Assembly: GCA_965204375.1 (NCBI GenBank)
Contig: OZ241986.1
Span: 608,001-672,000 of the forward strand
DNA from: Candidatus Latescibacterota bacterium
GTDB taxonomy: Bacteria; Latescibacterota; UBA2968
Length of the DNA: 64,000 bases
Reading direction: 5' to 3'
Part shown: in pieces, positions 1,455 through 64,000 of the stretch
Position numbering within the stretch: position 1 is the first letter of the stretch
Layout: each line of letters starts with the position of its first letter
Notes under the pieces: model-generated
Told to the model about the DNA's origin: nothing
The model's database searches: none
The model's input: only the letters and a program-made list of their open reading frames with translations
Translations under genes and position numbers: made by a program

Positions 1455-2084
1455 ATGAACCTCGATCCCGCTGCCGTCTCGCTGAAAAAAAACGGCGATA
1501 AAATCGAAGCTCTTATCCACGGAGAGACCACATTCGTCGATCGTCTTGCCCGCGCGTTTCCCCACAGTAATCCCGATCAATTTGTCAGCTTGATGGATGA
1601 ATTGGGACACGAAATTGGCATTATTGAAAATCCAAAAAAACTCGACAATGCTTCGCGCAATTTGCTCGAAGCCGAACTCAAAGCCATCTACTTTGTCCCG
1701 ACTATCAGCGCTATAACTTCCGTCGTATCCAAAGGTACGGGCAGTCAGTGGACTGTTGATACCGATGATGGCGAATATACTTTCCGCATTTTGGGCCGAG
1801 ACGCACTCAAGGGCAATGAACCGCCTACAGTTGAAATTACGGATGAACACGGCAAGCGATACAGAATTGACAATTACTGGGATCTCGATGCCGAAAGCCG
1901 AGATCTGACCTCTGACCTGTTGCCCGATAAAGTTGTCAAGGCGCGCTATTACACCCGATCGATCTCGAGTAGTGGAAGAGGCAGAGGCAGAGGTTCGAGC
2001 AGTCGCGGGAGTAGTAGCGGTGGCGGTGGTGGCAGTGGTAGCGGTGGTGGCAGTGGCATGGGCGGATCGATTGGCATACGGTGA
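1455..2084 (+). CDS. DUF1854-like protein with Gly/Ser/Arg-rich C-terminal tail
   Basis: RAFPHSNPDQFVSL, YFVPTI, WTVDTDDG; RBS AGGAG upstream. Confidence 0.65.
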   Translation: MNLDPAAVSLKKNGDKIEALIHGETTFVDRLARAFPHSNPDQFVSLMDELGHEIGIIENPKKLDNASRNLLEAELKAIYFVPTISAITSVVSKGTGSQWTVDTDDGEYTFRILGRDALKGNEPPTVEITDEHGKRYRIDNYWDLDAESRDLTSDLLPDKVVKARYYTRSISSSGRGRGRGSSSRGSSSGGGGGSGSGGGSGMGGSIGIR

Positions 2085-14902: not shown

Positions 14903-16268
14903 CAGATAGCCCGTAAAACCCATCGGCTTTAGCGATGGGATAAAAGGGCTTACGAATCCCTGCTTTCGCAGGGACATGCTTATGGGGTAGTGCTTTAGCG
15001 TTGGGGCACAATCATCAAGGGATTGTGGGCGGTGAGTCATTGTGATTCGTCCGATAGTTCCACGAAAAATGGGTTGACAAAATATGCTCATAAATGTATA
15101 TTTTTATTATGTTTAAGTCCTTCAAATACAGATTGCGCCCGACGAAAAAACAGGAGAAAATCCTGACGGCGCATAGTGAAGAATGTCGCTTGCTGTACAA
15201 CCAGCTTCTTTGTGTGAGAGTACAAGCATGGCAGCAAAAGCATCAGTCTTTGTCCTGCTATGACCAGATAAAAACTATTCCATTGATGAAGAAACAACGA
15301 CCTGAATTTACGCAAGTGTATAGTCAGGTCTTGCAACAGGTCGCGGTACGGGTTGATCTTGCATTCAAGGCGTTCTTTCGTCGTGTCAAAGAGCGGGCAA
15401 AGACGGGTGAGAAAGCTGGCTTTCCCAGATACAAAGGTCAGAATCGTTATGATTCTATCACCTATCCTCAGTTTTCCAACGGATGCCGATTGGACGATAA
15501 GGGCTTGCGATTAGGCAAAATAGGCTGTATTCGGATTGTCCAGCACAGACCCCTTGAGGGTATGCCTAAGTCTTGCACGCTCAGGCGCACTGCTACTGGC
15601 AAGTGGTTTGTTACTATCTCTTGTGATATAGGCGACGCCCCTGAAAAAATAGACGATGGCCCCGCCGTTGGCATTGACGTGGGACTTGATAATTTTGCTA
15701 TGTTTTCTGATAGAGAAAAGATCGCTAATCCTCGCTTTTTTCGTAAAGAGGAAAAGGCACTTGCAAAAGCACAGCGCAAGTGGGACAAAGTAAAAAAAGC
15801 GTCGCCAAAGAAACGAGAGAAAGCACGTAAGACTGTTGCCAGAGTGCACGAGCGTATCCGTAATAGACGACATAATTTTGTGCATCAAGAAGCTCGAAAA
15901 GTCGTCAATAAGTATGGCTTTGTTGCAACAGAAAAGTTAGACGCCAAAAAGATGCAAAAGAATCGTCGCTTGTCAAAAAGCATCTCAGACGCAGCGTGGT
16001 TCCTGTTTCGGCATTGTCTCGAATACAAAGCGGAGGAAGCTGGTATTGGATTCAAGCCTGTTGATCCTGAATACACGTCACAAGATTGCTCTTCTTGTGG
16101 ACATAGACAGAAGAAAGCCCTCTCTGATCGTGTGCATCATTGCAAAAAGTGTGGCTATACCACTGACAGAGACCACAATGCTGCGATAAACATATTGACT
16201 TTGGGATTACAAAGTCAGGTGGTTTGACCGCCAAGAAGCCCAACTGCTCTATCGTTGGGAGTAATCAC
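14903..16268 (+). mobile_element. IS200/IS605-family element with tnpB and no intact tnpA
   Basis: Left hairpin CCCATCG-GCTTTAG-CGATGGG (14919-14939); right end GAAGCCCAACT...GTTGGGAGTAATCAC ending in TCAC at 16268; left boundary inferred. Confidence 0.8.
15109..16227 (+). CDS. tnpB: TnpB RNA-guided endonuclease
   Basis: FKYRLRPT, RuvC GIDVG and ATEKL, zinc ribbon CSSCG/CKKCG, DRDHNAAINI; TTGACA-17-TATATT promoter at 15074-15102. Confidence 0.95.
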   Translation: MFKSFKYRLRPTKKQEKILTAHSEECRLLYNQLLCVRVQAWQQKHQSLSCYDQIKTIPLMKKQRPEFTQVYSQVLQQVAVRVDLAFKAFFRRVKERAKTGEKAGFPRYKGQNRYDSITYPQFSNGCRLDDKGLRLGKIGCIRIVQHRPLEGMPKSCTLRRTATGKWFVTISCDIGDAPEKIDDGPAVGIDVGLDNFAMFSDREKIANPRFFRKEEKALAKAQRKWDKVKKASPKKREKARKTVARVHERIRNRRHNFVHQEARKVVNKYGFVATEKLDAKKMQKNRRLSKSISDAAWFLFRHCLEYKAEEAGIGFKPVDPEYTSQDCSSCGHRQKKALSDRVHHCKKCGYTTDRDHNAAINILTLGLQSQVV

Positions 16269-19557: not shown

Positions 19558-20796
19558 TTATGCAGCGATTTTGCGTTCACCATCTACGAATTTCACCCCG
19601 TCAATGACGAGGGGTATGAGCTTGTAACCGCGTAATCTGACCCATGTTTTTTCAGCTTCAAGAGCCAGTTTATACACCATCGCCATTGTGGCTTTGACCG
19701 ATCCGCAGCCTTTTGTCTGCCTCGTGCGATGCCTGACGGTAGCAAAAGTCGATTCAATCGGGTTGGTGGTGCGTAAATGGATCCAGTGTTTGGCAGGAAA
19801 ATCATAAAAGGTGAAGAGCACCTCAAAATCTTTGGTGAGGCAGTCACAGGCTTTTTCATAGCGATCCTGATACAGACTCAAGAAGTGGTCATAGACCTTG
19901 TGCGCGGCCTCTTTTGTCGGCGACTGATACATATCTTGAAGGAGTCTCTTGGCATCCGGCTGCACAGATTTGGGTAGCTTATCCAACACATTAGCACTCT
20001 TATGCACCCAGCAGCGCTGATGTTTCGTGGCAGGGAATGTCTCTTCCAATGCGTGCCAGAAGCCCATTGCGCCATCGCCTATGGCAAGCGCAGGGGCTTG
20101 GCTCAACCCGCGTGCTTTGACATCCTGTAAGAGGGTCTGCCAAGATAAGGTGCTCTCACGCTGTCCCTGCTCTATGGCAAGGACTTCCTTTTTACCTTCT
20201 GCTGTGGCACCAATGAGCACGAGAACACAGGGACGGTCATCAGATAGGCGTACGTTAAAATAGATACCGTCTGCCCAGATATAGACATAGGCTTTATCGT
20301 GCAAGTCGCGCTTTTGCCATTGTTTATACTCATCTTCCCAAATACGCTTTAAGCGCGTGATATTGGCCGGAGAAAGCCCTGGTGCGCCTTTGCCTAAGAT
20401 CGCTTCGAGTGCCTGGGGAAAGGCTGAGGTAGAGACCCCTTTCAGATACAGTGTGGGGATCAATGTATCAATGCTCGGACTGCGACGGGCATATTTAGGC
20501 AGGATCGCACTGGTGAAGTGCTCCCCGTCTCGACGATCGTGAACGCGGGGTTGTTTGACGGGTATTTTACCAATACCAGTGGTGACTTCTCGGGCAGGAT
20601 GATACCCATTTTTGACCACCTCACGATGACCCTTTTCATCCACCTGATCAGCAAATCGGGCTATGTATTCATTCACTTCATACCGCAAGGCGGCACATAA
20701 CATCTTACGCGCACCATTTCTTATGACTTCTTCGAGGCTCTCGGCCAGTGTATCTTGCACTATGCTTTCCACTTCAAATGGGGTATATTCTTTCAC
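19558..20796 (-). CDS. IS256 (Mutator) family transposase
   Basis: NGYHPAR, LYLKGVST, WADGIY, IGDGAMGF, QRCWVH, RTTNPIES. Confidence 0.95.
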   Translation of the reverse strand: MKEYTPFEVESIVQDTLAESLEEVIRNGARKMLCAALRYEVNEYIARFADQVDEKGHREVVKNGYHPAREVTTGIGKIPVKQPRVHDRRDGEHFTSAILPKYARRSPSIDTLIPTLYLKGVSTSAFPQALEAILGKGAPGLSPANITRLKRIWEDEYKQWQKRDLHDKAYVYIWADGIYFNVRLSDDRPCVLVLIGATAEGKKEVLAIEQGQRESTLSWQTLLQDVKARGLSQAPALAIGDGAMGFWHALEETFPATKHQRCWVHKSANVLDKLPKSVQPDAKRLLQDMYQSPTKEAAHKVYDHFLSLYQDRYEKACDCLTKDFEVLFTFYDFPAKHWIHLRTTNPIESTFATVRHRTRQTKGCGSVKATMAMVYKLALEAEKTWVRLRGYKLIPLVIDGVKFVDGERKIAA

Positions 20797-20884: not shown

Positions 20885-22724
20885 GACGGGTCGGCAAAAA
20901 GTCAGAGATTGCCCCGATAGTTTTGGTAAGCTATATTTCGTTTATGCTTACTTTACGAGACCACGATAGGGCAGCCCCACCGGATTTCTGGATACAGCTT
21001 GGGGCTAAACGCAAGCAACTTCTTGATCGTTCCTGGGCTGGTGTTTTCCGAGAGTATCTGCTTTTGGAACTGCCCGTTGAGGCACTGGCCCCCCATTTTA
21101 GCAAAAATTTTGGGCGTCCCAGCAAAGACCTCCACGTTGTGCTCGGCGCACTGGTGCTGCAACAACTGCATGATTTGACCGATGCACAGACAGTGGAGGC
21201 CATTGCATTCAACATCGCTTGGCAGTATGCCCTTGATGTGCGCAGTGAAGCCGACTGTTATTTTTGCGAGCGAACGCTTCGCACCTATCGTCGTTTGGTG
21301 ATTCAGCATCACCTGGATGAGGTGCTCTTCCAAAGTCTGACCGACAAGCTCATTCATTCGGTAGGGGTTCATACCCGCAAGCAGCGGATTGACTCGACGG
21401 GTGTCCAAAGCTTTATGCGCAACCTGACACGCTTGGGCATTCTGGTCGAGTCCATGAGTAAATTCTTGCGCCAGTTGCGTCGAACCTGCCCAGAGTTGTA
21501 TCAGGAACTGGACTGTGACTTGTGGCGCAAGTATGTTGCCCGCACAGGCGATGGGTGTTTCGCTTTAACCACACCGAGCCAGTCAAAGTGTCGATTGTTA
21601 GAAGCCGCCGCCGATATAGATGCATTGCTAAAGCTGTTTTGTCCAACCGAAGCGGCGCAGTTGGACAGCTACCATCTGTTGGCAGGTGTTTTTGAAGAAC
21701 AGTGCCAACGCATACAAGGCGCATCTGGTCAAAGCAGCATCCAGATGCGGGATCCCCATGCGATACCGTGTGATAATACGCTTAATCCGGCCGATCCTGA
21801 CGCCAGCTATAATAAGCATCGTGGGGTGGGCTACCTCATACAGGTCATGGAGACCTTCTGTGATGATACCGACAAAGACGATGAGGCACAGGACGCCACA
21901 TCAGGCGTGTCTAAAGTTGCCCTGCCAGACCTGATCACGCATATCGCCGTTGGCAAGATGACAGTCCATGACAGTAAAGCCCTCTTACCTGCCATACAGG
22001 ATACACAAGCCCGTGGCGTGATGCCCAAGCATCTGCTGGCCGATACGCACTACGGTTCGACAAAATGTATCGCGCAGGCCAAAGATAGAGGTGTCACGTT
22101 GTTGGCTCCGTCGATGCCCCCCAAGGGCAAAGGTCAGGGTAAATTGACGTTGGAGGACTTTGAAGTAGATGCATCTGGGCACATCCAGCGATGTCCAGCC
22201 GGCCATGCACCCCTTGAGATGTCTGTGAGCAAGAAACGCCTTCAGGTTCGATTTGCCCCAGATTTATGTGACCAATGCCCCTTGCAAGAGCACTGTCCAA
22301 TCCCAGGGAAAGCGCGTCTCCAATATACCCACGAGCGTGTCAAGCAACGTGCCCGGCGTCTGTTTGAACAGTCTGATGTCTTCCGTGACCAATACCGCTG
22401 GCGTGCTGGCATCGAAGCGACCATATCGCGTCTAAAGCATCAAATGGGACTGGCTCACCTGCGGGTGCGTGGGCAAGGTGCGGTAAAATATCGGGTCTTG
22501 CTCAGCGCATTGGGTCTCAATATCCATCGTGTCGCTGTCTATAGGGGGTCCTTTTACCCTCAAAAGCTTTTTGGTAGGCTTTTGAGTGCCTTGCAAGGTC
22601 ATCAGCGGGTTATTGGGCCTTACAAACCTATATCAGGGCGTATGAACAGACGATTTGAAGTACCCACGACAAGGGGTTACAGGGGGCTTTCTCCCTTGAT
22701 TTTAAGACTTTTTGCCGACCCGTC
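20885..22724 (+). mobile_element. IS1182/IS5-like insertion sequence, 1840 bp
   Basis: Perfect 19-bp TIRs GACGGGTCGGCAAAAAGTC; 7-bp TSD AACTTTT at 20878-20884 and 22725-22731. Confidence 0.9.
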
Positions 22725-23853
22725 AACTTTTGAATATACCTCTAAACGCCTTGAGTCAGGTAAAAAATGTGATTGCGTTTGCATAGGGTGTGGTGAATCG
22801 CTTATCCTGAAACGTGGAGATAAAAAACAGTGGCATTTTGCTCATTGTGCAAAAACTTCCTGTGGTGGAGAGACTTATATCCACAAAGTAGTTAAAACGT
22901 GGATTGCTGAGAAATTGATAGGCCAAATCCTTTCTTTACCAGTACATCCAGAATTAGATAGCCCTAAAAAATTTTTAGTTGAAAGTGGCGAGATAGAAAA
23001 ATATAACAGTGCTATAAAACGGCAATATGACGTTGTGCTTAAGGGAATTTTTTCGTACGGTGAAACAGATCAAGTAAATCATGGTGAATTGATATTTGAG
23101 GTGCATTATAGTAACCCCAAAGATGATTGTTTTAAGTTGCAAGTGCAAGAATGGAAACTTTACGTTCTTGAGGTCGATGCTAAAACATTCTATGGTGATG
23201 GACGAGAAAAATTTACGATAGAAACACTTTCAGAAAACAGCGAGTGGACATGGCTTACGGACAACCAAAAACTTTGGGCTGAATATGGCTTGAAAAATAG
23301 TGTACGAGATATTATAGCAAACTGGATTACGGAAGAAACATGGATAGACGAAGAAGTAGAAATTCGACACGGTCCCTCAAAATTTATACGTACAGGTTAT
23401 GGACGTTTTAGCGTTGAACGACAAGTTGAAACAAAAATAATAAAGAAGGGGCCCTTTTATCGGCTGTTTGGAGTTGTCGATAGATTTGATAATGACGGAC
23501 CTTTGAGAGATTACGGATTTTATATTTGGGATTTTTTGGAGAGGCACAACACAACGCCATACTATTTTCATGCAGATAAGTGTTGGAAAAATAGAAAAAG
23601 CGATATAACTGGCAAAATTTACGATATTGTTTTTCAAGGAGATTTTGTAGGTCGGAGTAACAATGCACGTAAAAAGTCCTGTTTGGTATTCCAGTTAGTA
23701 GATAGTCTTGGTGAATATGATGACGATTTTAAGCAAGAAATACGAAAAGCTAAATTCTGTATTCTTGAGGTTGATATACATGGATTTTTTGCTGACGGAC
23801 TTGAACCTCCCACGCATAAGAGATTTAAGGAAAATACACAGTGGGTATGGTGA
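20944..23853 (+). CDS. DDE transposase read through in frame into a 5'-truncated CoiA-like zinc-finger/PD-(D/E)XK protein
   Basis: GRPS, RIDST, DPDASY, ADTHY, YRWRAGIEATISRLK; no stop before the TIR; then CVCIGCGE..WHFAH..C..ETYIH and YDVVL..FEVH. Confidence 0.75.
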   Translation: MLTLRDHDRAAPPDFWIQLGAKRKQLLDRSWAGVFREYLLLELPVEALAPHFSKNFGRPSKDLHVVLGALVLQQLHDLTDAQTVEAIAFNIAWQYALDVRSEADCYFCERTLRTYRRLVIQHHLDEVLFQSLTDKLIHSVGVHTRKQRIDSTGVQSFMRNLTRLGILVESMSKFLRQLRRTCPELYQELDCDLWRKYVARTGDGCFALTTPSQSKCRLLEAAADIDALLKLFCPTEAAQLDSYHLLAGVFEEQCQRIQGASGQSSIQMRDPHAIPCDNTLNPADPDASYNKHRGVGYLIQVMETFCDDTDKDDEAQDATSGVSKVALPDLITHIAVGKMTVHDSKALLPAIQDTQARGVMPKHLLADTHYGSTKCIAQAKDRGVTLLAPSMPPKGKGQGKLTLEDFEVDASGHIQRCPAGHAPLEMSVSKKRLQVRFAPDLCDQCPLQEHCPIPGKARLQYTHERVKQRARRLFEQSDVFRDQYRWRAGIEATISRLKHQMGLAHLRVRGQGAVKYRVLLSALGLNIHRVAVYRGSFYPQKLFGRLLSALQGHQRVIGPYKPISGRMNRRFEVPTTRGYRGLSPLILRLFADPSTFEYTSKRLESGKKCDCVCIGCGESLILKRGDKKQWHFAHCAKTSCGGETYIHKVVKTWIAEKLIGQILSLPVHPELDSPKKFLVESGEIEKYNSAIKRQYDVVLKGIFSYGETDQVNHGELIFEVHYSNPKDDCFKLQVQEWKLYVLEVDAKTFYGDGREKFTIETLSENSEWTWLTDNQKLWAEYGLKNSVRDIIANWITEETWIDEEVEIRHGPSKFIRTGYGRFSVERQVETKIIKKGPFYRLFGVVDRFDNDGPLRDYGFYIWDFLERHNTTPYYFHADKCWKNRKSDITGKIYDIVFQGDFVGRSNNARKKSCLVFQLVDSLGEYDDDFKQEIRKAKFCILEVDIHGFFADGLEPPTHKRFKENTQWVW

Positions 23854-30806: not shown

Positions 30807-31158
30807 AACGAGAGAGTGCCATTGGCCTATCATGCAAACGCTTCTCGTTCCAGTTGTTAATGATAGTGACTGCGATGAGCTGTACAATTTCTGATCAACA
30901 TAAAAGTAGGTGATGGTATAAAATAGAAGTCAGGTTCTTGGCGATGCACGAAAGTGGGAAGACATTCCAAACCCAGACGAATATATGTTAGACAGGCTGG
31001 ATCAGTAGCTTTTTAGCGGGTTGGGGAAATCTCTGACTAATCAAACATTCTCCTACAATATGATAAATATCGATAATGTTTTAGCTTCTTGCATGTCTTG
31101 AGAATAGTTTCATATCCGTGGAAAGGCAATGACAACCGTGAAGAAAGGAACTGTATCG

Positions 31159-47703: not shown

Positions 47704-49104
47704 ATGGGAAAATTAAATGTGGAAAATAGGACATTGTTCACTTATGACAACCTGTCTGTGATGCAGGGCATTAACAGTGAAACGATTGATTTGATTTACC
47801 TGGATCCGCCGTTTAACTCAAAGCGTAATTATGCAGCTCCTATTGGATCACAAGCTGCGGGAGCTGCTTTCAAGGATACGTGGAATCTTGATGATATTAA
47901 GCGCGAATGGGTAGAGGAAATAGAGGCAGATAATAAAGCGACATGGGCATCAATAGTCTCTGCTGGTCATATAAGCGGTGAAAGTACACAAGCATATTTG
48001 ACGTATATGGCGATCAGACTTATCGAGATGCGCCGAATTTTGAAACCAACAGGCAGTATATATCTGCACTGTGATCCTACGGCAAGTCACTATCTGAAAC
48101 TTTTAACGGATGCCGTTTTTGGACAGCAAAATTTTCGAGCAGAAATTACGTGGCATCGTTCTGCGGAAAATTTGTCAAACAAAAAATGGCGACGGGCTTT
48201 TGAAACATTATTTTATTATTCAAAAGGGAAATCGTGGACTTGGAATCAAATTTTTGAGCCGCTCTCTGAACAGGTATTGACGAGAGATTATCGCTTCGAG
48301 GATGGGCGGGGACGCTACAAGACGACGGCTTGCACAAACAATGCACACCGCCCGAATATGTTTTATGAGTTTAATGGCAACACTCGACAATGGCGATATT
48401 CCAAAGAAACCATGATGAGATATGATCGGGAAGGCATGTTGGTCTATAACAAGGAGGGTATCCCCCGCCGTAAACTTTATCTTTCGGATGTTCAGGGGAC
48501 AAAACTGACTAATGTATGGTCAGATATAAAAGTCTTAGCCAGTAATGCAAAAGAGAAAACGGGGTACCCCACGCAGAAGCCCCTCGCTCTTTTAGAGCGC
48601 ATTATTGAAGCGTCGTCAAATCCGGGCGATATGGTACTCGATCCCTTCTGTGGTTGTGCTACAACCTGCATAGCTGCGGAGAAATTGGAGCGACAATGGG
48701 TTGGCATAGATATTGAGCCAGAAGCCCGCAATCTTGTTATTCAGCGATTGGAAAAAGAGATTGATGTAGATGCTCTTTTCAAGGCTGGTGGTGGCGCATT
48801 GCCCGATGTAATTCATAGAAAGACACCGCCTAAGCGTACAGAAAAAGATGCCCCCCGGCGATCTTCTAATATAAAAATGAAGTTATACAAGTTACAGGAG
48901 GGACGTTGTAATGCCCCATGTGGAGAGGATGAGCAAGGGCGGGCGTTCCCTATTGATATATTTGAGATTGACCATATACGCCCCAGGTCTAAAGGCGGTG
49001 CGGATGTTGATGAGAATTTACAGTTGTTGTGTCCCACTTGTAATGGGCGTAAAGGGAATCGTACGATGGGATATTTGTTGGATCTGTTAAGTCAAGAATC
49101 ATGA
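47704..49104 (+). CDS. N6/N4 DNA methyltransferase (beta order) fused to a C-terminal HNH domain
   Basis: YLDPPF, YPTQKP, DPFCGCAT; EIDHIRPRSKGG..NLQLLCPTCN. Confidence 0.92.
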   Translation: MGKLNVENRTLFTYDNLSVMQGINSETIDLIYLDPPFNSKRNYAAPIGSQAAGAAFKDTWNLDDIKREWVEEIEADNKATWASIVSAGHISGESTQAYLTYMAIRLIEMRRILKPTGSIYLHCDPTASHYLKLLTDAVFGQQNFRAEITWHRSAENLSNKKWRRAFETLFYYSKGKSWTWNQIFEPLSEQVLTRDYRFEDGRGRYKTTACTNNAHRPNMFYEFNGNTRQWRYSKETMMRYDREGMLVYNKEGIPRRKLYLSDVQGTKLTNVWSDIKVLASNAKEKTGYPTQKPLALLERIIEASSNPGDMVLDPFCGCATTCIAAEKLERQWVGIDIEPEARNLVIQRLEKEIDVDALFKAGGGALPDVIHRKTPPKRTEKDAPRRSSNIKMKLYKLQEGRCNAPCGEDEQGRAFPIDIFEIDHIRPRSKGGADVDENLQLLCPTCNGRKGNRTMGYLLDLLSQES

Positions 49105-49768: not shown

Positions 49769-50302
49769 ATGACGCCAGAAAAAAAAGAGAAACAGCGAGA
49801 AAGAGACAGCAAACTAGCCTATGGCACACCAGCTATGATTTTAGAACAAGCAAGGTCACTTCTTTGGGCTGCTCAACACATGCAGGGGTTATTACACGCT
49901 GCTGCTAATGCACCTAATCCAGACTCTTTCCAGTTGATTGGATGCTTCTTTTCTACCACAATGCTCCGGGCATTTGCCGCCGAGATCGCATTGAAGGGTT
50001 TATATCAAAAAATCATTGGCGAATACGCCGATCAAACTCATGACTTATCTGAATTGTTTGACTCATTGCCACAAACAGTACAAAATGATCTCGATGCACA
50101 GTTCAAGGCTGTGTGCAGAGTGAAACCTGGATATGACGGGCCGGATACCATAAAAGAAGTGCTATCTAACCACAAAGACGATTTTGTTACATTTAGATAT
50201 ATTCTTTTTAAACCGCCGCAAGCACCAAAAAAGGCAAATACCAAGCCCTTAGACCTTGAACCCGCGGTAGAAGCAATAATACAGATTGGAAGTATTATAT
50301 AA
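49769..50302 (+). CDS. HEPN-like protein
   Basis: AFAAEIALKGL, THDLSELF, FVTFRY; AGGAGG RBS. Confidence 0.6.
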   Translation: MTPEKKEKQRERDSKLAYGTPAMILEQARSLLWAAQHMQGLLHAAANAPNPDSFQLIGCFFSTTMLRAFAAEIALKGLYQKIIGEYADQTHDLSELFDSLPQTVQNDLDAQFKAVCRVKPGYDGPDTIKEVLSNHKDDFVTFRYILFKPPQAPKKANTKPLDLEPAVEAIIQIGSII

Positions 50303-50393
50303 ACACATTTACGCTCTGGGGATTATGTATCACAGTAGCATAAATCCCATGAGACAAGGCCGTGCAGAGAAGAGCGCGGCCTTTAGACAAAAA

Positions 50394-50519
50394 TTATTTT
50401 TTGGGTGGTGGCTTTGGTGGTGGCTTTGGTGGTGGTTTTGATGGCGGTTTTGATGGACGTGCAGGGCGCCCTCCTCTTTGTTCGTAATTGGACTTACCTC
50501 TATTACTCTGCTGTGGCAT
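50394..50519 (-). CDS. Small Pro/Lys-rich peptide (41 aa)
   Basis: MPQQSNRGKSNYEQRGGRPARPSKPPSKPPPKPPPKPPPKK; overlaps the stop of the SLATT-like gene; AGGAG upstream. Confidence 0.5.
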   Translation of the reverse strand: MPQQSNRGKSNYEQRGGRPARPSKPPSKPPPKPPPKPPPKK

Positions 50520-51054
50520 ATCTACTCCTTAGATATTCGGCGGCTTCGTCAAGGCACTTTTCGTTAAGTTTGTGATTTTCAGATATGTCTGAGAATCCTA
50601 TTGTGCTTGTTACAATAACCATAGTGTGAGACAACTCCCTGTCTTTGGCAATTATTTCTGCGTCTTCCATATCCATTGACCTCATATCGGCCCAGAGTTT
50701 TTCCCATTCACTTTCTAACAAACCGCAGTGGACGCTTATTGCATGCAAGATCGCAGACTTTCTTCCCCAATCAAGCACAAAATCTACAGCAAGGGTAGCA
50801 GCAAGAACGAGGCCAAAACCAAGTTGCCACCCGTAATCCAATGCGTTAATAAATGATACTACTCCAGCGGTTGCAGAAACAAATAGAAGAAACCGAACCC
50901 CAGTATGCCATTTGCGGTAGTTATCGGAAAGATAAGCATAATACCGAACCAACCTACAGGCATCAAACAAGTGTTCCCATACCTCCTGTTCTATATGTTC
51001 ACGGTTAGAGGGCGGCAATGGTGGTGAACCTGCTACAATCCCAGGAGTATCCAT
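50503..51054 (-). CDS. SLATT-like two-TM protein
   Basis: RYYAYLSDNYRKWH, two TM helices, then a helical C-terminus; GAGGAGG RBS. Confidence 0.55.
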   Translation of the reverse strand: MDTPGIVAGSPPLPPSNREHIEQEVWEHLFDACRLVRYYAYLSDNYRKWHTGVRFLLFVSATAGVVSFINALDYGWQLGFGLVLAATLAVDFVLDWGRKSAILHAISVHCGLLESEWEKLWADMRSMDMEDAEIIAKDRELSHTMVIVTSTIGFSDISENHKLNEKCLDEAAEYLRSRYATAE

Positions 51055-51539: not shown

Positions 51540-51770
51540 ATGGATAATTTTTTAATTGTAACCAACACAAGCAAACATACATTTTGCGATGAACTCTCAG
51601 AAAACAAAGAGTTAGGCTACAGCGTAACTTCTTTTTTTGTTACAGATAACGGCAGTAGTGTTCGTTATACCGCTCTAATGGAAATAGACGAAGATGCTAA
51701 AACAATAATGGCGAATCGCAAAGCAATAGGCCAAATCCTAAATAAATCTACTGGCGAAAACTCATCATGA
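51540..51770 (+). CDS. Small hypothetical protein
   Basis: GGAGGAG RBS. Confidence 0.5.
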   Translation: MDNFLIVTNTSKHTFCDELSENKELGYSVTSFFVTDNGSSVRYTALMEIDEDAKTIMANRKAIGQILNKSTGENSS

Positions 51771-51887
51771 CAGTTTTGCGTCGGGGATTATGTATTATAG
51801 TGCCGAGAACATAATCCACATAATCCCACAATAAAAAAGCTGGCTACTCACTGATAAAGAAGCGGCCAGCTTTTCCTCTAAAATGAT

Positions 51888-52364
51888 TTAGGTACTGCCT
51901 TTTATTCTACGTTGCATCATTCTTCTTTTTCTGTAATATTCCGGGTTATATTTGCTTCCATCAGCCTTTTGTGGTGTTTGTGTCTTGGGCCTCACAGGAC
52001 CTTTAGACCCAAACCATTCTGACAGCTTATCTTTCGCCAGATTCGCTGTTTCAGCCGTCATATATGCTCTGGCAAGACCCAAAGCTGTTGCTAAAACTCC
52101 CGCATCATCTCCATACCCAACCAGAGGTGTCATATCAGGGACCGCATCTATTGGGATAATAAAGTATGCTAAGGCACTATAAATCGCGGTTTTTACCGTG
52201 ATCGGTGTTCCTTCTTGCTTTGCGGTATAGTAAAGCTCTAGCGATTTTTTAACAACTGCCCTACCCGCGGTAGTAGCTTGATTAGACAGTTTATCCCAAA
52301 ATCCACGCTCCGTGTACTTCTCTGGCTCTGGTAACGAGGGACTCTTACGATTTCCGCTTTGCAT
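51888..52364 (-). CDS. YkvA/DUF1232 membrane protein with basic C-terminal tail
   Basis: FWDKL, ALAYFIIPIDAVPD..GYGDD; GGAGG RBS before ATG 52364. Confidence 0.85.
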   Translation of the reverse strand: MQSGNRKSPSLPEPEKYTERGFWDKLSNQATTAGRAVVKKSLELYYTAKQEGTPITVKTAIYSALAYFIIPIDAVPDMTPLVGYGDDAGVLATALGLARAYMTAETANLAKDKLSEWFGSKGPVRPKTQTPQKADGSKYNPEYYRKRRMMQRRIKGST

Positions 52365-52422
52365 CTCTACCTCCGGTGTGAGTGTTAGCCCATAATCCGG
52401 CACCCCGGTTTGGGTGCCGGGC

Positions 52423-52561
52423 GGTATCAACACTCGCGCAGTAGAGATGCGGGAAGTCCTACTTATTTACCAAGGCTTGGGGAGCTACCCCTCGCCTATG
52501 TGATTGGTTATTGTATTCGGCAGGCCACCCGACATACGGGCACCGCACGAGCGTTGATACC
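52423..52561 (-). ncRNA. Candidate structured RNA, copy 1 (139 nt)
   Basis: 20-bp closing stem with G-U pairs on the minus strand, inner hairpins, promoter directly upstream. Confidence 0.65.
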
Positions 52562-52564
52562 TGT

Positions 52565-52593
52565 ATGATACAATAGCCTTTTCTGTAAGTCAA
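52565..52593 (-). promoter_or_regulatory. Sigma70-type promoter for RNA copy 1
   Basis: TTGACT-17 nt-TATCAT. Confidence 0.7.
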
Positions 52594-52747
52594 AACATAA
52601 ATCCCTATCTAATCTGATTGACGGGTTTTGTGTTGTACAACACGAGGGGCACATGTTGCCTGCCATAGTTTGACATTTGATTCTGGAAATCCTATTTTGT
52701 TACTTTGAAATAGGCAAGGCATGCGCTGATTCTAAAAGAAGATAAAG

Positions 52748-53236
52748 ATGGCTAAGGGCGACCATATTTGTGTAAGTAGAGGACTCTACTGGCATCATGG
52801 AATTGATCTCGGAAATGGCCGAGTCATACACTATACGGGGTACCCTGGGGATAAGGGCAGAAATGCCGCTATTAAAGTTGAAAGTATCCAAAAATTTGCC
52901 AAAGGAAGGGAAATTTACTACGGAGACTCTAAAGCGCAATATTCGCATGATGAAATTGTGAGGCGTGCCGAAGGTCGGATTGGTGAAGAGGACTACGATA
53001 TCGTCGGCAACAATTGCGAACATTTTGTGAACTGGTGCAGAACTGGCCGACATAAGAGCCAGCAAGTCAATACGGCGGCGGCTTTGGTTACACCTGCTGC
53101 ACCTTACGCGTACCTTAAACAGAAATTCGGTGCTCCGACACCTCCGGCACCACAAAAGGCTGACGGCAGTAAATATAATGCGGAATATTACAGAAGAAAA
53201 AGAATGATGCAACGCAGAATAAAGGGTAGCACCTAA
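52748..53236 (+). CDS. LRAT-like (permuted NlpC/P60) protein with basic C-terminal tail
   Basis: KGDHI, YWHHGI..G.VIHY, NNCEHF. Confidence 0.88.
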   Translation: MAKGDHICVSRGLYWHHGIDLGNGRVIHYTGYPGDKGRNAAIKVESIQKFAKGREIYYGDSKAQYSHDEIVRRAEGRIGEEDYDIVGNNCEHFVNWCRTGRHKSQQVNTAAALVTPAAPYAYLKQKFGAPTPPAPQKADGSKYNAEYYRRKRMMQRRIKGST

Positions 53237-53642
53237 ATCATTTAATCGGTCGATTTTTTTTATGAATGAGTGTCTAAATGGAGGCAGAAATACATTTTTC
53301 AGGGCCTGTTTTTGGGCGTATTTGCACAAAAAAACGCCAATTTGCGGGCCTGGGTACACTGAAAAAGGGCAATTTAGGGGCTTTTTACAATATTCGAGGC
53401 GAGCAAGGCGTAGTCTGTTTTTGTGTTGGAAGGCGCTGAACAGCCATAAATGGGTCAGGTAAAGGAAAAAAACAGCGTTTCTGTGGTGACATGGTAGCAA
53501 AAGGGCGTGTTTTTGCTCAAAATGCCCCGCATGCGGTTCCGCCCTCAGTGTGTCATCCTGCCCAAGTAAGCGGACATGTTGGGTGCAAAAGCCCGTCGAT
53601 CGTTCTGATTAACGGGCTTTTGTGTTGTACTCGAGGCGGGTT

Positions 53643-54335
53643 TTACCGCCCTTTTTCCCATATTGCGTTATAGGCGGGGCTGGTGTTCGTGAACTCTGTT
53701 GTCAGGCTTATCCTGCCTTTTCCGAGGGTCTCCACAACGATTAACAGCTTTACCTCGGTCACATTATCCGGGAAAGGTTTTCCCCCCAATCCTCTCATGT
53801 CTTTCCATTCGGATATGAACGCCTGACCGTCGTAATTCAAAAACCGCCTTGTCCAATCCTCTGGCGAGTCCCAAGCGTTGGTATTAAATGACCGCTGCAT
53901 CCGGTAGCCGCCTGAGCTGTACCGCTCGGCCAGTTGCTTTTTGATTGCCTGGTATTTAGGCATGATATTCTCGCCACCATTCCCCACGTCCATTTCATCC
54001 GACCAGGCCCACAGCTTAAAAAGCCCGTGATCGGGCGTGAAATATAGCCGAAAGAGGGTAAAGTCAGCCTCTTTCGGCTCCTCAGAAAAGAGGCCGGAAA
54101 ACAGATCGAGGGCTGATTTTTCCGGGGGTGTATCAGCCAGTTTAAGTATAATGGAGCGTCGATAGCCCACCGAGTCAATGTCTGTTATCTCGAAGCCTTT
54201 GAGGGCCTTAACTTCATCAAAAGGCATCCCCATATAGAACTCAAAGGAATAGACGCCGGGCGGTTTTGTCTGGGCGGTCGCTGATGCGACAAGTAGCACC
54301 AGTGAGGTCAATAGTGTGCGGGTTAAAGTCAACAT
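53643..54335 (-). CDS. Secreted hypothetical protein
   Basis: Signal peptide MLTLTRTLLTSLVLLVASATA-Q; AAGGAG RBS. Confidence 0.65.
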   Translation of the reverse strand: MLTLTRTLLTSLVLLVASATAQTKPPGVYSFEFYMGMPFDEVKALKGFEITDIDSVGYRRSIILKLADTPPEKSALDLFSGLFSEEPKEADFTLFRLYFTPDHGLFKLWAWSDEMDVGNGGENIMPKYQAIKKQLAERYSSGGYRMQRSFNTNAWDSPEDWTRRFLNYDGQAFISEWKDMRGLGGKPFPDNVTEVKLLIVVETLGKGRISLTTEFTNTSPAYNAIWEKGR

Positions 54336-54370
54336 GTGTTGCTCCTTTGTGTTGGGTGGTGAGTACACAC

Positions 54371-54405: not shown

Positions 54406-54512
54406 CTATTTTTCCCAAATAGTCTTGAAAAACTTCTACAGTTTTCGCGTGGACTTTTCGCATGGTGGACTTTCTGCGAGGTGGTTGTGGCACTCAAAAT
54501 TGAGTGCCGGGC

Positions 54513-54651
54513 ACAGTCCACCGTCACGCAGAAAGATGCGATTAAGCCCTGCCTGTTTACCCTAGATCGGGGAGCTACCCGTCACCGTTAATGGGCTATT
54601 GTATTCAGCAGGCTACCCGACAAAACGGGTATCTGCCTGACAATGGACTGT
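54513..54651 (-). ncRNA. Candidate structured RNA, copy 2 (139 nt)
   Basis: Same architecture as copy 1 with a different but pairing closing stem. Confidence 0.65.
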
Positions 54652-54692: not shown

Positions 54693-55022
54693 TCACGTAT
54701 CGAACCAACCGACCATTTGCTCAGCGGCTTGCTTTTTCGCCTTTGGTGTGATGTGCATTGCAATAGCGGCGACTGTGCTGATCAGTACGCCGAGGTCGTC
54801 TGTGAACCCGAACACTGGCGTTGGGTCAGGTATGGCATCAATGGGCGATATGAAATAGGCCAGTGCCGCGAAAACTGTGGCCTTCGCCCACTTGGGCGTA
54901 TCCTTTGATTCGGCAGTGTAATACAGCCATAGAGCTTTTTCAATCACATCGCGGCCAGCTTTGCGAGCGAATGTTTTGATCTTCTGCCAGAAATCGGCCT
55001 CGCTAAAATCCTTGTCGGCCAT
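54693..55022 (-). CDS. YkvA/DUF1232 protein without the tail
   Basis: FWQKIK, ALAYFISPIDAIPD..GFTDD; GGAG before ATG 55022. Confidence 0.85.
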   Translation of the reverse strand: MADKDFSEADFWQKIKTFARKAGRDVIEKALWLYYTAESKDTPKWAKATVFAALAYFISPIDAIPDPTPVFGFTDDLGVLISTVAAIAMHITPKAKKQAAEQMVGWFDT

Positions 55023-63941: not shown

Positions 63942-64000
63942 ATGACAGATTTTGCAAATCTGATGTCGGATGTGGCAAAGGCGTTGTTGGGCGAGCCGAC
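63942..64000 (+). CDS. Start of a gene running off the window
   Basis: AGGAG RBS; MTDFANLMSDVAKALLGEP. Confidence 0.5.
   Translation, partial: MTDFANLMSDVAKALLGEP

Follow-up and report, generated by a model that had tools for sequence, protein, structure and literature searches.

Why should two unrelated proteins, encoded by divergent neighbouring genes, end in the same basic peptide? The question arises from a 64,000-nucleotide stretch of the genome of a Candidatus Latescibacterota bacterium (contig OZ241986.1, positions 608,001 to 672,000; hereafter, the window), in which a DUF1232 (YkvA-like) gene on the minus strand (51888..52364) and an LRAT/PLAAT-like NlpC/P60 gene on the plus strand (52748..53236) lie side by side on a mobile island. 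Specifically, the DUF1232 gene, with a GGAGG sequence 6 nt before its ATG at 52364, encodes a protein of 158 amino acids (P0121) in which the family domain (Pfam PF06803, E 3.1e-12, 46.5 bits against a cut-off of 23, residues 58-92) is followed by an added C-terminal linker and tag. The LRAT gene encodes a tagged protein of 162 amino acids (P0001) and matches PF04970 over residues 3-102 (E 9.9e-28, 97.3 bits against a cut-off of 24.3). The 28 codons of the tag map to 51891..51974 (minus strand) on the DUF1232 gene, where they read PQKADGSKYNPEYYRKRRMMQRRIKGST, and to 53150..53233 (plus strand) on the LRAT gene, where they read PQKADGSKYNAEYYRRKRMMQRRIKGST; the two peptides are identical at 25 of 28 residues. 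A first-pass annotation of the sequence had reported that proteins of these two unrelated families share their end, and the Pfam assignments bear this out.

The codons that specify the tag indicate at which level the likeness is maintained. Eleven of the 28 differ between the two genes, eight synonymously and three by replacement (P/A, K/R and R/K), exactly as had been counted by hand in the first-pass annotation. By the Nei-Gojobori method (S=15 and N=69 sites), the proportion of differences was 0.53 at synonymous sites (pS) and 0.043 at non-synonymous sites (pN), giving a dN/dS of 0.048, and the Fisher exact test on synonymous versus replacement changes returned p 1.9e-5. Since eight changes are synonymous and the three others conservative, at so low a dN/dS, constraint acts on the peptide and not on the DNA, in agreement with the selection first proposed. 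In addition, the two copies must be old, because their synonymous sites are about halfway to saturation. The other tails described below suggest YYRKKR as the ancestral sequence; therefore, the apparent KR/RK swap would consist of two independent K>R changes, one in each window gene.

At the DNA level, the two gene ends form an inverted repeat of two 96-nt arms, the left one (51881..51976) covering the tag codons, the stop codon and 7 nt, and the right one lying at 53148..53243. The arms are 89% complementary, are spaced by 1171 nt and constitute the sole long inverted repeat between positions 48000 and 58000 of the window. Their similarity begins at the first tag codon and ceases 7 nt past the stop codon. 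Such an arrangement, in which inverted arms flank a 1.17-kb two-gene unit and resemble each other for 7 nt beyond both stops, would be expected of the terminal repeat of a mobile cassette or of a recombination site, over which the reading frames run incidentally. However, eight of the 11 codon differences are synonymous third-position changes, the peptide recurs on proteins whose surrounding sequence is unrelated, and the genome holds only two copies of the element. An explanation at the DNA level is thus largely refuted and retains hardly any probability; equally, the mostly synonymous codon differences rule out a non-coding repeat read through by both open reading frames (ORFs).

Comparison with homologous proteins showed that the tail is an addition to the DUF1232 domain. 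The homologues P0122-P0125 (111-116 amino acids) end at ...WFG followed by zero to three residues, and in the tagged window protein the linker SKGPVRPKTQT (51975..52007, minus strand) and then the tag begin right after WFG. A paralogue of 109 amino acids, whose lack of the tag the first-pass annotation had noticed, is encoded further along the window (54693..55022, minus strand; Pfam E 8.8e-15, 54.6 bits) and terminates in ...VGWFDT, and a third paralogue, at 5231953-5232261 of the genome, also lacks the tag. We conclude that the tail is an add-on, because the four homologues and both paralogues do without it and the homologues stop at WFG. The linkers preceding the two tags differ. That of the LRAT protein (APTPPAP) is well described by the term Pro-rich, which had been applied to both, whereas the term suits the DUF1232 linker less; the form of the latter is common to an EcsC-family tagged protein (P0131) and to a DUF1232 fragment (P0126).

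Among the LRAT homologues, the tail is present on the closest ones, namely P0003 (171 amino acids, 75% identical), P0002 (185 amino acids) and P0128 (188 amino acids), while the more distant P0004, P0005 and P0007 possess a conserved hydrophobic segment, ...AAYLKQK(F/L)G, and stop soon after it with few basic residues. P0002 and P0128 contain a 17-residue tandem duplication over the linker and the start of the tag (SAPKP.TPQK.D.NKYN twice). In the cluster mates P0127 and P0129, an unrelated end replaces everything after ...LWAP, from which it follows that the 3' end of the LRAT gene is a recombination-prone hot spot.

Profile searches recovered the tail on further proteins. A two-tail profile, run over 1.84 billion cluster representatives, detected a single protein, P0126 (E 3.2e-6), an 82-residue DUF1232 fragment that is 79% identical to the window protein and has the linker SKGPVGSKTQT and the tail start PQKADGSKYTAEYYKKK. 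As this search covered representatives only, tagged proteins stay hidden wherever the representative of a 50% cluster has no tail; it missed the tagged LRAT proteins and is not exhaustive. P0126 closes with EWCNAK, and any DNA encoding these residues would read [R/G][M/V]VQ[R/C][K/E/Q] in the neighbouring frame, which fits the RMMQRR of the tag. Its end looks like a one-base frame slip in an A-rich run, either real or an assembly error.

A five-tail profile, applied to proteins of 110-2000 amino acids in a 5.8-billion-protein collection, gave five hits at E <= 1 among 1035 candidates, these being the two window proteins, P0002, P0003 and P0131. The last is an EcsC-family protein of 244 amino acids (PF12787, 47 bits against a cut-off of 30.4; PADLOC candidate PDC-S29, E 1.9e-87), whose tail ends in GSKGYVPGRAQVHSYPKADGSKYNAEYYRRKRSMKKNR. 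When the DUF1232 alignment was compared with P0131 by hhalign, the linker and tail alone aligned (54% identity, E 2.8e-8) and the domains did not. The DUF1232 and EcsC tails have in common a GSKG.V linker, and the LRAT proteins have a Pro-rich linker of their own. P0131 and P0003 share a source and a reported longest contig of 693,395 bp, and probably belong to one organism; in the genome of the window, no EcsC homologue was found beyond the tail match. As judged from these sequences, the module is grafted onto at least three unrelated families, LRAT, DUF1232 and EcsC/PDC-S29.

We then asked how widely the module occurs. In the genome of the window, a single contig of 6.34 Mb, a peptide search returned only the two tag copies, with E values (1.6e-14 and 2.0e-12) that exclude chance similarity, and a hidden Markov model built from seven tails and run over the 145,018 six-frame ORFs of the genome returned the same two, the next best match having an E value of 2.7. 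The tag was not confirmed in 40 relatives. Six weak matches in relatives were rejected as chance (E 0.10-0.85, 41-67% identity over 18-23 residues, three of them with internal stops). Pattern scans confirmed no match in the GTDB species genomes (two scans, 92 and 116 pattern matches), in the JGI metagenome contigs (two scans, 158 and 124) or in IMG/VR (one scan, 74), and a tblastn search with the 43-residue LRAT tail gave no match in phage and plasmid records. Outside this genome, five tagged proteins were found (P0002, P0003, P0126, P0128 and P0131), all from ENA/Logan assemblies. The suspicion, raised beforehand, that the tag occurs only here is therefore nearly right, these five proteins being what tells against it. 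The string 'KADGSKY', which forms the core of the tail, was not found in the literature searched.

The LRAT gene itself is present in two of 168 genomes of the phylum, that of the window included. The other copy (genome G129, locus L014, G129:C1:5855933-5859190; ORF 1495-1764, minus strand) matches residues 1-89 and 85-131 in two different frames, and is either a pseudogene split by a frameshift or an assembly error; its 3.3-kb locus has no DUF1232 ORF. Of the sequencing runs, X1-X3 belong to one study; they contain the stretch without differences and may stem from the source sample. Run X4, from another study, contains low-depth, diverged pieces of both tagged genes. The DUF1232 piece (51926-52169) shows 21 differences and continues into a tag, with a joint (51926/53200) at the homologous point of the other arm; the LRAT piece (52927-53070) shows 24 differences. 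The coverage of the tag itself in X4 is too thin for a strain-level dN/dS.

These data bear on the possibility that the DUF1232 tail is a recent neutral passenger, that is, an accidental 3'-end duplicate of an LRAT (or EcsC) tail, of which the donor alone is under selection. Apart from this genome, the only known sources of a tagged DUF1232 protein are P0126 and, probably, a low-depth contig of X4, and the tail of P0126 is out of frame, as such a passenger could well be. A neutral copy as old as the pS of 0.53 implies, however, would be expected to have accumulated many replacements or a stop, yet it shows two replacements and an open frame; furthermore, the fusion predates the split from the lineage of P0126, whose protein is 79% identical. 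We consider a neutral origin of the DUF1232 tail quite improbable. In conclusion, all these comparisons make it very probable that the tail is a real, portable and selected peptide module.

The six aligned tails divide into two parts. K8, A9, D10, G11, S12, K13, Y14, Y18 and Y19 are invariant, and the far ends vary (MMQRRIKGST, MIQRRIKSARCF, MIQRRMKSSKTGGSE and SMKKNR) at a net charge that stays between +7 and +8. AlphaFold2 (AF2) models predict a helix at residues 145-160 of the LRAT protein, at low confidence (predicted local distance difference test, pLDDT, about 46-62), and one at residues 141-156 of the DUF1232 protein (pLDDT about 58-74), where a disordered linker (121-131) comes before it. 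In both proteins, the predicted helix spans EYYR...IKGS and follows a disordered or low-confidence linker. The hydrophobic moment (muH) of the best 18-mer was 0.30-0.35 (0.23 in P0131), compared with means of 0.17-0.23 for composition-matched shuffles. Searched alone, the tail found only unrelated families in Pfam (best E 0.12-0.15), no match in NCBIfam, nothing better than E 0.27 among PDB sequences, in which the basic tail of ribosomal protein uL13 appeared at E 0.7-1.1, and no usable match by features in the protein Atlas. The tail is a genuine case of a shuffled C-terminal address peptide with a new sequence, confined to a few related uncultured organisms.

The main rival to a specific function is a non-specific polybasic anchor, which would hold its carrier on acidic phospholipid through electrostatics and the insertion of Tyr and Met, in the manner of polybasic or amphipathic membrane-targeting sequences, with no specific protein partner. 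The net charge and the predicted C-terminal helix are what such an anchor would need, its far end conserves charge and not sequence, and the carriers are membrane-linked. Moreover, the shorter LRAT homologues end in a hydrophobic segment and a few basic residues (P0004 ...GDPKYRR, P0005 ...GGPRQR). On the other hand, KADGSKYN.EYY is near-invariant over three carrier families, which electrostatics does not require, the hydrophobic moment does not clearly rise above that of shuffles, and the DUF1232 and EcsC proteins already possess hydrophobic segments. On balance, we regard the anchor as unlikely.

What is known of the carriers points to the membrane. In the LRAT protein, the domain is intact: N89, C90, E91, F93, H16 and H17, including Cys90 of the NCEHF sequence, are invariant in 69 aligned homologues, the window protein among them. 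Residues 1-110 of its AF2 model mostly exceed a pLDDT of 90, and a Foldseek search with the predicted domain returned 4dpz, 7zom and 4fa0 (human HRASLS2/PLAAT3; E 8e-7 to 2e-6, TMt 0.77-0.79). Enzymes of the PLAAT/HRASLS group act on membrane phospholipids and depend for their targeting on a hydrophobic segment at the C-terminus. A DUF1232 homologue is named 'membrane protein YkvA' in one source, and P0131 contains hydrophobic 19-mers with Kyte-Doolittle values of 1.7-2.0. As far as titles and the beginnings of abstracts could tell, the literature search yielded no paper dedicated to bacterial DUF1232 function and nothing relevant on LRAT proteins and defence islands; PDC-S29 appears in the literature searched as a table entry only. 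Co-folding of the LRAT and DUF1232 proteins scored 0.00 against a mark of 0.32, a result obtained with controls not run, which counts neither for nor against binding.

The first-pass annotation had also suggested export by a type IV secretion system (T4SS) or loading into particles. A signal of this sort, whether for a T4SS, an encapsulin, a microcompartment or a phage particle, would fit the layout of a C-terminal peptide placed behind a flexible linker on unrelated proteins, and the genome has three matches to bacterial microcompartment (BMC) shell domains. The machinery was nevertheless not found where it should be. The profiles for VirD4/TraG (PF02534, PF12696) and VirB4 (PF03135) gave zero matches each in this one-contig, 95.98% complete genome, although control genomes matched; the encapsulin family PF04454 gave none in the genome; and none of 42 island ORFs matched a phage structural PHROG family. 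The BMC shell genes map to 1.956 and 4.497 Mb, at distances of 1.3 and 3.8 Mb from the locus (0.66 Mb); the tag itself is highly cationic without being clearly amphipathic. Neither proposal gained support, and a cargo-loading or secretion signal appears very improbable.

A further suggestion, that the tag is an Arg-rich peptide recognising an adjacent structured RNA, concerns the RNA element between the two genes. This leader or small RNA (sRNA), a distant relative of sRNA-Xcc1 (RF02221), maps to 52395..52560 on the minus strand, upstream of the tagged DUF1232 gene, and is preceded by a sigma70-like promoter (52593-52565, minus strand); it matches RF02221 at full length (27.7 bits, gathering threshold 53, E 0.0085). 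It is the first of seven copies. The second (54485..54650, minus strand; 17.1 bits), with a promoter-like site before it (54684-54656, minus strand), lies 1.25 kb past the LRAT stop codon and upstream of a gene for a signal-peptide protein of 231 amino acids (53643-54338, minus strand). Five further copies are located at 4304238-4304373, 6229291-6229438, 6244005-6244135, 1318054-1318187 and 1318537-1318657 of the genome. The consensus fold has 42 pairs, 13 of which show compensatory change.

Five of the seven copies match the full length of the RF02221 model (1-87/87), oriented towards the downstream gene, with scores of 27.7, 28.6, 25.5, 25.5 and 17.1 bits, all below the gathering threshold; two gave no match at E<=5. 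The element also differs from sRNA-Xcc1 in being about 125-165 nt long against the 87 positions of the model, with two enlarged internal hairpins. If the minus strand of the window is the functional one, five copies each precede, by about 100 nt, a gene whose product is a secreted, lipoprotein-like or membrane protein, and the tandem pair at 1.318 Mb has downstream only a 97-residue ORF of no known type. sRNA-Xcc1 has been described upstream of varied mobile-element cargo, namely symE cassettes (10.1101/2025.06.18.660453) and an ORF6N gene on a mobile element (10.1101/2020.03.17.996009). The seven-member set appears to be a remote and enlarged branch of the sRNA-Xcc1 family that lies outside the Proteobacteria.

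The Arg/Lys/Tyr-rich composition of the tail and the position of this RNA, with a promoter of its own, between the tagged genes would both suit an RNA-binding peptide. The five copies outside the window, however, precede untagged genes, among them genes for signal-peptide or lipoprotein-like proteins, and the tail gave no significant match to an RNA-binding family (see the PDB and uL13 values above). In run X4, the RNA core reached a summed depth of about 218, compared with 2-18 for the relatives of the tagged genes. With seven RNA copies for one tagged pair, and the RNA far commoner in X4, there is no specific co-occurrence of RNA and tag. Recognition of the adjacent RNA thus found no support, and nucleic-acid binding as the function of the tail seems rather improbable.

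What, then, would the tail do? The explanation that we tentatively favour, at somewhat less than an even chance, is that of a lineage-restricted docking tail in two parts, the KADGSKYN.EYY motif and a variable polybasic helix, mounted on a flexible linker and spread by recombination at gene 3' ends. Transfers of about 100 nt, which took along the final codons together with the stop and a few bases after it, moved the module between unrelated genes, and selection then kept the transferred peptide. The first part, near-invariant and non-basic, would be read by one specific partner, for which its conservation argues. The second, a predicted helix that conserves its net charge of +7 but not its sequence, would provide an electrostatic attraction of a general kind to acidic lipid or nucleic acid, as the sequence drift suggests. 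The linker, of 10-15 flexible residues, would tether the tail behind the last hydrophobic segment of small carriers acting in or on the membrane; the strongly cationic tail would stay in the cytoplasm. In this way, different cargo of a mobile defence-type island could be brought to the same site. Of the targeting role first proposed, the part that stands is a translated, selected and portable tag, found on LRAT orthologues, a DUF1232 fragment and an EcsC/PDC-S29 protein; the targeting mechanisms then put forward are left without support.

Several observations weigh against the docking explanation. No binding partner of the tail has been identified, and given its rarity the module may have no dedicated reader at all. 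Clear amphipathicity is lacking in the helix, since 15-24% of shuffles attain its hydrophobic moment of 0.23-0.35. In P0126, the frame is lost at the end (EWCNAK), so that the tail could be dispensable there, unless the A-run was misassembled. The hydrophobic segment of the window LRAT protein is weak (Kyte-Doolittle 1.03 over 15 residues), for which reason we only infer its membrane association, and neither the LRAT nor the DUF1232 protein of the window has a PADLOC match. Finally, assigning the synonymous changes to a lineage would take the DNA of relatives; selection on the DUF1232 copy therefore rests on the two replacements and on the persistence of the fusion in the lineage of P0126.

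A bolder version of the docking explanation, which we offer as speculation and hold to be improbable, is that a modular immune or conflict system uses the tail as an address label: a sensor or scaffold encoded on the island would read KADGSKYN.EYY and recruit or release interchangeable membrane-attacking effectors. Were this true, effectors such as an LRAT-type phospholipase/acyltransferase, a DUF1232 protein or an EcsC/PDC-S29 protein could be swapped by grafting about 100 nt onto the 3' end of a gene.

The genomic context is that of an accessory island of about 40 kb, which extends from about position 31000 to past the end of the window at 64000. It abounds in conflict genes, and its genes include Fic, two AbiC-like genes, HATPase_c_3 with a PLD-like neighbour, methylase-HNH, HEPN, a weak SLATT-like gene, PIN/Phd, Rad52 and RadC. 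On the right, the island ends with a gene for a large serine recombinase (genome 673283-674923), which lies 1.3 kb outside the window; dnaX-ybaB-recR and recA come next. No tRNA gene was detected in the window. Both window DUF1232 proteins match phrog_14750, a family of unknown function (E 1.5e-33 for the tagged one).

Between a convergent ORF of 76 amino acids and the DUF1232 gene, we read from the sequence a hairpin (AAAGCTGGC...GCCAGCTTT, 51836..51873) with T/A runs on both sides, likely a two-way terminator; its loop is longer than the consensus scan permits, hence it is unlisted there. A 32-nt repeat follows two stop codons (50305-50336 and 51770-51801) and does not recur genome-wide. Just upstream of the tagged genes, a weak HEPN-like protein (49769-50302, plus strand; Pfam E 0.0034, below cut-off) and a weakly SLATT-like protein of 183 amino acids (50503-51054, minus strand; NCBIfam E 0.013 and 0.034, far below cut-off) may form a small effector pair. 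Between their genes, a short-period repeat (50360-50520) reads GGGF/WWWL on the plus strand and KPPP on the minus strand.

Elsewhere in the window, the segment 41573-46471 encodes the HATPase_c_3 protein (676 amino acids), the PLD-like protein (284 amino acids) and, 1 kb on, a protein of 340 amino acids with a weak proteasome-subunit match, and could represent a defence operon yet to be characterised. Among sulfatase and PhyH genes lie a TnpB/IS605 OrfB gene (15094-16227, plus strand), a Mutator-family transposase gene (19558-20796, minus strand) and an ORF of 976 amino acids (20923-23853, plus strand) in which DDE transposase domains are joined to a CoiA-like N-terminal domain.

Short peptides at protein ends that direct unrelated proteins to a common location are of value as handles for partner finding and as tools. 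The tail described here is an unusually clean case, in that its three carriers are unrelated, its boundary is sharp and the excess of synonymous over replacement changes within a single genome is strong, and it illustrates how a label may spread when about 100 nt, stop codon included, are copied onto the end of another gene. It also links three poorly understood families, bacterial LRAT, DUF1232/YkvA and EcsC/PDC-S29, to one likely site of action. Its weight is limited by its occurrence in a handful of closely related uncultured organisms.

Among known systems, the cargo-loading peptides of encapsulins and the encapsulation peptides of microcompartments resemble the tail in being short C-terminal peptides, attached through a flexible linker to unrelated proteins and shuffled at gene ends. 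Peptides of those two groups, however, have a hydrophobic or amphipathic character and go together with shell genes. The present tag carries a net charge of +7; the genome yielded no encapsulin, and its BMC shell genes lie megabases from the locus. The Arg-rich C-terminal signals of VirB/D4 T4SSs are likewise basic and occur on unrelated proteins. They are, however, loosely conserved charge patterns, while the tag is near-identical over its carriers and the genome revealed neither a coupling protein nor a VirB4 ATPase. In the PLAAT/HRASLS/LRAT enzymes, as here, a catalytic domain of the LRAT fold is followed by a C-terminal targeting segment. In the eukaryotic proteins this is a hydrophobic transmembrane helix; in the window protein, its place is taken by a weak hydrophobic segment, a linker and a polybasic tail that is also present on non-LRAT proteins. 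Lastly, the tail shares with the MinD/FtsA-type and K-Ras polybasic sequences a terminal cationic helix that could bind acidic lipid, but differs from them in a hydrophobic moment not clearly higher than that of shuffles and in the invariant non-basic motif that stands before its basic part.

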